In this document: in pieces, positions 706 to 1,223 of the stretch
How positions within the stretch are numbered: position 1 is the first letter of the stretch
How the letters are laid out: each line of letters begins with the position of its first letter
Sequence record: PP925845.1
Source: Escherichia phage BananaBelafonte
Length of the DNA: 51,510 nt
Direction: 5' to 3' (one strand)
Program-made: the position numbers and the translations under genes
Notes under the pieces: model-generated
The model's database searches: none
Told to the model about the DNA's origin: nothing
Seen by the model: only the letters and a program-made list of their open reading frames with translations

Positions 706-951
706 ATGGAAAAATTCACTATTGATTCAATGATGGCGGCAATCGACAAGGCCGGAGAAAACACCCTGGTAATGGTCAACATCAACGCACTTGAGATAAG
801 CGTCGGGGAGTTCCTGAGCATCGCGCACGATTGCAACGATGTTTACAAGTCGGAGAAAGGCGAGGAGGCCAGAATCAAGATCGTAAGCGTTGGTGATGGT
901 TCGTTTTACATCACGCTGGTGAACGAAAACACAATGGCGGTGGCTGTATGA
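706..951 (+). CDS. hypothetical early protein (81 aa)
   Basis: ORF with GAGGAG RBS; tightly packed after previous gene. Confidence 0.45.
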   Translation: MEKFTIDSMMAAIDKAGENTLVMVNINALEISVGEFLSIAHDCNDVYKSEKGEEARIKIVSVGDGSFYITLVNENTMAVAV

Positions 952-1223
952 ACAAGTTAAAAGTAGCCCTGGGCGCAATCCTGGTTGTTGCTGGTGTGGT
1001 CATGTTGACCGGATGCGAGAAAGCAGCGGAGGCGGAAGTGATCGCAGGTGCGGAGAATGATTTCCGTGTCTCTCGCCTGTTTACGGTTGACGGTTGCACG
1101 GCTTACCGATTCTATGACAATGGGCGTGCGATCTATTATACCGATTGCAAAGGCTCCAGCGCCTGGAAAGTGCAAAACGGCAAAGTGACGACTCACCACC
1201 AGGTGCAGACTTCCAGCGAATAG
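948..1223 (+). CDS. putative lipoprotein (signal peptide plus lipobox LTGC), possible superinfection-exclusion type
   Basis: N-terminus MNKLKVALGAILVVAGVVMLTGC has hydrophobic core and lipobox Cys; mature part has additional Cys; function inferred only by analogy to phage Cor/Llp-type lipoproteins. Confidence 0.5.
   Translation: MNKLKVALGAILVVAGVVMLTGCEKAAEAEVIAGAENDFRVSRLFTVDGCTAYRFYDNGRAIYYTDCKGSSAWKVQNGKVTTHHQVQTSSE

Follow-up and report, generated by a model that had tools for sequence, protein, structure and literature searches.

Escherichia phage BananaBelafonte (sequence record PP925845.1) carries a small gene at positions 948 to 1,223, and its predicted lipoprotein product is the subject of this analysis. 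The window, by which we mean the whole stretch of 51,510 nucleotides that was analysed, looks like the complete 51.5-kb genome of a T1-like (Drexlerviridae) siphophage. With little doubt, the product is a periplasmic lipoprotein of the DUF4884 family and not a member of the Cor/Llp group of receptor blockers. Its gene behaves as an accessory cassette that is not tied to the receptor of the phage, and the protein is proposed, tentatively, to act on the envelope of the infected cell against the entry of competing phages. The explanation as a whole, which combines the lipoprotein, the cassette, the independence from the receptor and this mechanism, has by our estimate a probability of about 0.35.

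The gene and its lipoprotein signal

The open reading frame (ORF) encodes the protein MNKLKVALGAILVVAGVVMLTGCEKAAEAEVIAGAENDFRVSRLFTVDGCTAYRFYDNGRAIYYTDCKGSSAWKVQNGKVTTHHQVQTSSE. It begins at ATG 948, the first start codon past a stop, and ends with TAG at 1221-1223. Homologues in other phages, a low ratio of non-synonymous to synonymous substitution rates (dN/dS) and an ATGA overlap with the upstream ORF establish it as a real gene. The ratio amounts to 0.15-0.16 against three relatives and falls to 0.05-0.08 in the core; the gene is under purifying selection.

The PROSITE lipoprotein rule PS51257 was applied by hand to the protein sequence, and each of its elements was found. Two lysines (K3 and K5) lie within the first seven residues, residues 6-20 (V6-L20) are uncharged and hydrophobic, and L20-T21-G22-C23 agrees with the lipobox pattern [LVI][ASTVI][GAS]C, with the cysteine at position 23 inside the permitted range of 15-35. 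Cleavage is predicted between MNKLKVALGAILVVAGVVMLTG and C, so that Cys23 (codon 1014-1016) is the predicted site of lipidation. When all six frames of the window were scanned with a strict lipobox pattern, this ORF was the single hit, and the lipobox therefore stands above chance. A relaxed scan of the window added one further credible lipoprotein, the u-spanin at 45164-45556. An earlier note on this DNA had described a 91-residue ORF with a signal peptide and an LTGC lipobox, and this description is confirmed. Its count of three more cysteines in the mature part is not. The protein has three cysteines in total, C23, C50 (codon 1095-1097) and C67 (codon 1146-1148), and because the first of these is the predicted lipidated residue, the mature part holds two further ones. 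The sequence gives strong support to a product that would be handled as a Sec/Lgt/Lsp-type lipoprotein of the DUF4884 family.

Membership of the DUF4884 family

The window protein matches Pfam DUF4884 (PF16225) with E=4.4e-6 and 26.8 bits, below the gathering cut-off of 30, and PHROG 6360 (function unknown) with E=1.6e-10. Close homologues are already tagged with PF16225, and NCBI calls them 'DUF4884 domain-containing protein'; all 76 of the 76 diverse aligned relatives match PF16225 (best E=2.7e-11). The residues L44, F45, Y53, R54, F55, D57, Y63 and K79 are nearly or fully invariant, and the length of 91 residues fits the approximately 90 of the family. The core of the family reads [FY]xVxxLFxxDGCxVYRFxDxGxxxY[FY]TxCxG...GK and that of the window protein FxVxRLFTVDGC50TAYRFxDxGxxIYYTxC67xG...GK.

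An exhaustive profile search yielded 1,247 representative clusters (50% identity) at E<=1e-3, nearly all of which are lipoproteins of 76-120 amino acids. Searches with tblastn found homologues in approximately 119 phage records. These include rtp3 of phage Rtp, many Drexlerviridae (among them the BASEL phages JeanPiccard, FritzSarasin, PeterMerian and JakobBernoulli), Serratia myophages, a Pantoea siphophage and 200-kb Xanthomonas phages. The rtp3 product is 55% identical to the window protein, and its gene has an equivalent genome position. Three family members, rtp3, JeanPiccard bas02_0065 and Bacteroides thetaiotaomicron BT_3183, resemble the window protein in length (about 80-95 amino acids), in the lipoprotein signal and in the core motif LFxxDGCxVYRFxDxG...Y[FY]TxCxG...GK, and an optional second cysteine pair (CGKxC), present in about one-third of the family, is lacking in the window protein. 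The window protein adds to a known, uncharacterised family, and membership in it explains no mechanism.

Genes of this family occur in several genomic settings. In a Pantoea lambdoid prophage the gene lies in the nin region, after the O/P replication genes; in Pseudomonas prophages it lies in the early region, a few genes upstream of the integrase; further copies are found on a 351-kb contig resembling a jumbo phage and in Pseudomonas phage Dolphis, near the divergent promoter region. No conserved neighbour gene was found over the five contexts compared. The pattern-based scan of genome loci was limited to 11 loci and says little on the true taxonomic frequency of the family. In Dolphis (locus L012, 5789-6527), as judged by eye, the DUF4884 gene is preceded by one for a small protein with a hydrophobic, membrane-like stretch, and the protein encoded downstream begins with a sequence that resembles a signal peptide; a few early proteins directed to the envelope may be clustered here.

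The mature protein and its predicted location

The mature protein of 69 residues appears, with strong support from modelling, to consist of the lipid anchor at Cys23, a tether of about 15 residues and a compact beta domain of about 53 residues. AlphaFold2, run on the mature protein with a 108-sequence alignment, predicts a six-stranded antiparallel beta meander (predicted local distance difference test, pLDDT, 78.8; predicted template modelling score, pTM, 0.52). The two cysteines of this domain co-vary perfectly: among 142 DUF4884 representatives, C50 and C67 are both present in 123, both absent in 19, and in no case does one occur singly. This pattern indicates that C50 and C67 probably form a disulfide, which would place the working site of the protein in the periplasm. 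The C-terminus is a polar tail, with no C-terminal membrane segment.

In E. coli, an aspartate at position +2 is the signal for retention of a lipoprotein in the inner membrane, and a different residue at this position leads to Lol export to the outer membrane. In the window protein Cys23 is followed by Glu-Lys, and with glutamate rather than aspartate at +2 the protein is predicted to be exported by the Lol pathway to the inner leaflet of the outer membrane. At the tether, the family alignment has a moderately conserved C-x-K-x-A-E pattern.

Comparisons of the fold gave little. Foldseek of the AlphaFold2 model against the PDB returned nothing under E=1.6, a BFVD structure search matched only other DUF4884 or unnamed phage lipoproteins, and profile searches against PDB sequences, NCBIfam and PADLOC gave signal-peptide noise at most.

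Independence from the receptor

The Cor/Llp label is tempting for any small lipoprotein of a Gram-negative phage, and apart from the Llp/Cor-type receptor blockers no small phage lipoprotein of Gram-negative hosts is, to our knowledge, well understood. Cor (of T1, phi80 and N15) and Llp (of T5) are, like the window protein, small phage lipoproteins that are predicted to face the periplasm, carry cysteines in the mature part and are probably expressed during infection. The earlier note had accordingly suggested a lipoprotein of this type that inactivates the receptor of the phage. Such a protein would jam the outer-membrane receptor from the periplasmic side, a mode of action also presumed for Cor, and the topology agrees with this, as the window protein is small, predicted to lie in the outer membrane, has two mature cysteines and is probably early. 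Llp acts on FhuA from the periplasmic side in exactly this way (PMC9586334). For the gene at 948-1223, however, the inference fails, and an own-receptor blocker has a very small probability.

Homology to Cor and Llp was examined and rejected. The Cor PHROG (phrog_1119) gave E=0.068 over residues 11-30 only. An hhalign comparison of the family with T1 Cor covered 23 columns, all of them signal peptide and lipobox, and a hidden Markov model alignment gave the same result; the comparison with T5 Llp, whose query sequence was verified against 8a60_B, covered 18 columns of signal peptide only. The window protein likewise shows no Llp-like fold.

The position of the gene also speaks against a role at the receptor. 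Receptor-blocking lipoproteins sit in the receptor-binding protein (RBP) locus and co-vary with it (PMC8594841, PMC13164509, PMC11893012). In Drexlerviridae, the exclusion genes lie in the RBP locus and track the receptor type, as described in the BASEL and KanT1 papers (PMC8594841, PMC13164509), and the exclusion lipoproteins tested in mEp phages are likewise encoded within the structural gene cluster and correspond to the receptor. According to the annotation of T1, Cor is located downstream of the J-like tail-tip gene and adjoins the receptor-binding genes, and T1 has no DUF4884 gene. The llp gene, we presume, similarly adjoins the RBP gene of T5. In contrast to Cor, the window gene neither lies beside the receptor-binding genes nor tracks the receptor type; it is about 27 kb away from the RBP locus (28213-29533, with gpJ at 24609-28181).

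Distribution among relatives agrees with this. The RBP and the neighbouring secreted protein of Klebsiella phage vB_KM5a1-KLB26 (hereafter KLB26) are 100% identical to those of the window, yet the slot of KLB26 lacks a lipoprotein. The window RBP is shared by 56 records, and none of these is found among the 60 best DUF4884 records. A true Cor homologue and a DUF4884 gene stand at separate loci of the same genome in at least nine records (PMBT35, herni, G29-2, PGN590, B1.2, A16a, JLBYU41, aalborv and slyngel), and the DUF4884 gene is also present in Rtp and JeanPiccard, which are LptD-type phages (PMC8594841). The family is thus seen with at least three types of RBP locus, namely Cor/FhuA-type, LptD-type and YncD-like. 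From distribution and position together we conclude that the lipoprotein gene is unlinked to receptor specificity. A better candidate for a cognate factor is the secreted 110-amino-acid protein at 28213-28545, which occurs together with the RBP and diverges in parallel with it across 43 phage records and is a candidate exclusion protein or RBP accessory factor. The mechanical ORF list extends this ORF to 28716, and the signal peptide begins at an internal methionine.

A separate observation concerns the labels of some of these records. MG065636, MG065643, MG065649 and others ('Campylobacter phage A16a, E6, A143 ...'), of about 50 kb, contain a Cor homologue as well as a DUF4884 gene and look similar to T1-like phages of E. 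coli; their Campylobacter jejuni host labels look doubtful.

Spanins (the Rz1 o-spanins and the u-spanin gp11 of T1) are also phage-encoded outer-membrane lipoproteins. The window protein differs from them in that its gene lies outside the lysis cassette and its C-terminus is polar, and the u-spanin of the window is a separate gene.

An exchangeable cassette

With window positions 1-5000 as the query, the closest GenBank relatives are KLB26 and Salmonella phage PMBT35. The match to KLB26, at 89% nucleotide identity, begins only at window position 1219, and that to PMBT35, at 77%, begins at 948. A sibling contig (L009) has in the same slot (4001-4321) a 106-amino-acid lipoprotein of phrog_16585 (function unknown). 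The signal peptides of this lipoprotein and of the window protein do not differ in amino acid sequence and are approximately 94% identical in DNA, whereas the mature domains are unrelated. The two sequences diverge right past the lipobox cysteine codon, and DNA identity resumes exactly at the TAGCAC module that follows the gene. The sibling protein has aspartate at +2 and is predicted to be retained in the inner membrane, in contrast to the window protein with its Glu-Lys. We also considered whether the sibling protein (P0038) could be a divergent DUF4884 member. An hhalign comparison recovered only the C-terminal CGKxC motif with a probability of 23%, and we regard the protein as a distinct domain; weak matches of it to GIY-YIG and UzuA were dismissed as short motif matches.

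Exchange is visible within the gene as well. The last 22 codons (70-91; window 1157-1220) are mosaic among close relatives. When PMBT35 is compared with a second sibling contig (L010), codons 24-69 show a synonymous divergence of 0.03 and saturation is confined to codons 70-91, which points to recombination within the gene and not to gradual change. Presence and absence, domain swap and mosaic end therefore indicate that the locus acts as an exchangeable periplasmic-effector cassette, and there is strong support for the view that the lipoprotein gene by itself forms an accessory cassette, which closes the first operon and is dispensable.

The operon and the flanking module

The lipoprotein gene is the last in its unit, and this unit is the only one locally with a canonical -35 hexamer, which fits early transcription by the RNA polymerase of the host in its unmodified form. 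The -35 hexamer of the site at 172-200 is invariant in five related phage loci, in which its A-tract and spacing are kept, and the ribosome-binding region behind it is likewise conserved in five relatives. The first gene, for a DUF7174 protein, occupies the same position in sibling contigs L009-L011. The second (706-951) is replaceable, as siblings carry another gene there or none. The lipoprotein ATG overlaps the stop of this second ORF (gtATGA), and translation is therefore probably coupled. Host RNA polymerase may thus transcribe the operon that ends in the lipoprotein gene early in infection. The earlier note had assigned the gene to the first early transcript. This timing is plausible from the conserved promoter-like site and from the finding of no terminator-like site between it and the lipoprotein ORF, but it stays a prediction, and the promoter scan of the window did not exceed chance (2 sites versus 5.8 expected).

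Directly behind the gene lies a repeated intergenic module, of which the window holds 13 copies against 0.28 expected by chance. The module consists of (A)TAGCACGAATTGCTAAA, a mini-palindrome AGCA-N5-TGCT, followed in several copies by a second hairpin. In the copy behind the lipoprotein gene, the TAG of TAGCACGAATTGCTAAA at 1221 is the stop codon of the gene, the loop of the hairpin at 1249-1269 holds a -10-like TACTAT, and the hairpin folds with z=-4.7. At least three copies supply, with the TAG of the motif, the stop codon of the gene before them. Five copies from the early region were folded, and in four of them a stem, whose sequence varies between copies, flanks a -10-like TATAGT or TACTAT; in the fifth (1538-1608), the hexamer TATGAT is partly within the 3' arm of the stem. 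The module behind the lipoprotein gene also stands at the head of most small-gene units downstream. From TTGCTA to the -10-like hexamer the distance is 22 nucleotides, beyond the normal -35 distance, and Rfam returned no match on the whole window. A promoter that depends on an activator and carries a stem-loop is one possible reading of the module. T4-type phages have promoter/stem-loop cassettes, to which the module at the 3' boundary of the domain swap can be likened. The features of the window discussed here are listed in Table 1.

Table 1. Coordinates of the lipoprotein gene, its parts, its operon and the other loci of the window
Feature	Position	Strand	Description
Lipoprotein gene	948..1223	+	91 amino acids including signal peptide; DUF4884 member; homologue of rtp3 (phage Rtp); dN/dS 0.15
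Signal peptide and lipobox (predicted)	948..1016	+	residues 1-23, MNKLKVALGAILVVAGVVMLTGC; agrees with PS51257
Tether (predicted)	1017..1061	+	residues 24-38, EKAAEAEVIAGAEND; +2 residue Glu, not Asp
Folded beta domain (model)	1062..1220	+	residues 39-91; AlphaFold2 pLDDT 78.8; six antiparallel strands
Sigma-70-type promoter-like site	172..200	+	TTGACT-17 nucleotides-CACAAT after an A-rich stretch; from consensus scan
DUF7174 protein gene	233..700	+	155 amino acids; first operon gene; Pfam PF23796 E=7.7e-36
Second operon gene	706..951	+	81 amino acids; phrog_31863 E=1.7e-10; stop overlaps lipoprotein start (ATGA)
Intergenic module closing the cassette	1221..1269	+	TAGCACGAATTGCTAAA and hairpin GGGGCT-N9-AGCCCC (1249-1269)
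Module copies (13)	1221-1292, 1538-1608, 2641-2712, 3184-3260, 3832-3905, 4828-4905, 10320-10336, 31093-31109, 38002-38018(-), 41279-41295, 42434-42450, 42762-42778, 48438-48454(-)		
J-like tail-tip gene (gpJ)	24609-28181		RBP locus downstream, on the opposite strand
Secreted protein	28213-28545	-	110 amino acids; Sec signal peptide MRWFILSLMIFASNALA, followed by LN
RBP	28556-29206	-	216 amino acids; 100% identical to that of KLB26, 56% to that of YncD phage IME347
RBP-locus ORF	29216-29533	-	
Holin-like ORF	44455-44670		lysis cassette 44455-45556
Endolysin-sized ORF	44673-45167		lysis cassette
u-spanin lipoprotein	45164-45556		phrog_1804 E=3.8e-47; lysis cassette

Possible function and alternatives

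In the mechanism that we favour, the lipoprotein would decorate the periplasmic face of the outer membrane early after infection. There it might interfere with a post-adsorption step of a secondary attack, such as tail-tip penetration, breaching of the cell wall or DNA transit, or might otherwise harden the envelope, and the infected cell would be protected whatever receptor a competitor uses. Rather than the receptor of the phage, the target would more likely be an envelope component of broad conservation, or a step that many infections share. This follows from the presence of the gene independent of the RBP module and from the occurrence of the domain in phages of unrelated hosts and morphotypes, both of which suggest a target other than the own receptor. 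As a mechanism, an outer-membrane-anchored periplasmic effector against post-adsorption competitor entry is put forward only tentatively.

Post-adsorption, receptor-independent exclusion factors are known from other systems, and include the Ltp lipoprotein of Streptococcus phage TP-J34 and the Sp and Imm proteins of T4. They may serve as a functional analogy, as they are envelope-exposed, not tied to the receptor and encoded by early or accessory genes, and Ltp is in addition a lipoprotein. However, Ltp is helical and belongs to a Gram-positive system, whereas the window protein is all-beta in its model and has no sequence relationship to Ltp.

Several considerations weigh against the favoured explanation. 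The +2 rule is the single line of evidence for the predicted placement in the outer membrane, as is the promoter-like site for early timing. The modelled fold is without an informative relative and so gives no functional lead, and the conserved residues lie mostly in strand cores and turns, where they may be structural and silent on a ligand. Two weakly matching loci are chromosomal, one in Saprospiraceae (a polysaccharide locus) and one in a deltaproteobacterium (a housekeeping region), and BT_3183 of B. thetaiotaomicron was detected in the glycoproteome as an expressed envelope glycoprotein. Such chromosomal members fit a general envelope role and not necessarily competition between phages. 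The literature on DUF4884 and rtp3 holds two incidental mentions and no functional study, and no experiment or annotation was found that gives any DUF4884 protein a function.

The most probable alternative, although we consider it unlikely, is that the protein modulates the envelope or physiology apart from exclusion. It could inhibit a periplasmic cell-wall hydrolase, and so control lysis timing or prevent premature lysis by the signal-arrest-release (SAR) endolysin, damp envelope-stress signalling or counter an envelope-located defence. The non-phage chromosomal members and the detection of BT_3183 as an expressed envelope glycoprotein agree with such a role, as does the presence of DUF4884 in every phage morphotype. 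Enzyme inhibitors are common among small periplasmic lipoproteins that contain a disulfide. However, no likeness to lysozyme-inhibitor or immunity families was found in Pfam, NCBIfam, PADLOC or the PDB, the gene is unlinked to the lysis cassette (44455-45556), and it is missing from many close relatives that have the same lysis genes.

A further possibility, to which we assign a low probability, is that the lipoprotein jams a different widespread outer-membrane protein, such as a TonB-dependent transporter, LptD or BamA, and so excludes competitor phages or colicins while the own receptor is unaffected. This would account for the independence from the RBP of the phage and would suit a domain that, in the model, is tethered to the outer membrane on a short linker; a mosaic C-terminal hairpin and a swappable domain are what one would expect of a specificity element in an arms race. 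The core, however, is very strongly conserved from the enterobacterial members of the family to those of Pseudomonas, Xanthomonas and Bacteroidota, which is odd for variable outer-membrane targets unless the target is itself highly conserved.

Below these alternatives stands the own-receptor blocker already dealt with. The idea of a functionless passenger cassette, spread by recombination at the repeated promoter/stem-loop boundaries, is hardly credible: it would explain presence, absence and swapping among near-identical genomes and the flanking repeated module, but not the strong purifying selection (core dN/dS 0.05-0.08), the 1,247 conserved family clusters or the intact processing signal. 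The probability left after the favoured mechanism and the four alternatives belongs to some other explanation.

Implications

DUF4884 is among the larger uncharacterised families of phage lipoproteins, and its distribution ignores receptor type, host and virion morphology. It is possible, although far from assured, that the family represents a new, receptor-independent class of phage envelope effectors. Its members, which occur in sipho-, myo- and jumbo phages and in prophages across several phyla, would be small, early, disulfide-stapled beta lipoproteins that act, from the periplasmic side of the outer membrane, on a conserved envelope component, for example by blocking superinfecting entry after adsorption. 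In the T1-like lineage, the locus would be a 'periplasmic effector slot', in which recombination at promoter/stem-loop boundaries joins one constant signal peptide to different mature domains. Near-isogenic phages, some of which carry the DUF4884 domain, some an alternative domain and some no lipoprotein, constitute a natural experiment. Finding the target of DUF4884 would reveal either a general means by which phages defend infected cells or a conserved vulnerability of the Gram-negative envelope.

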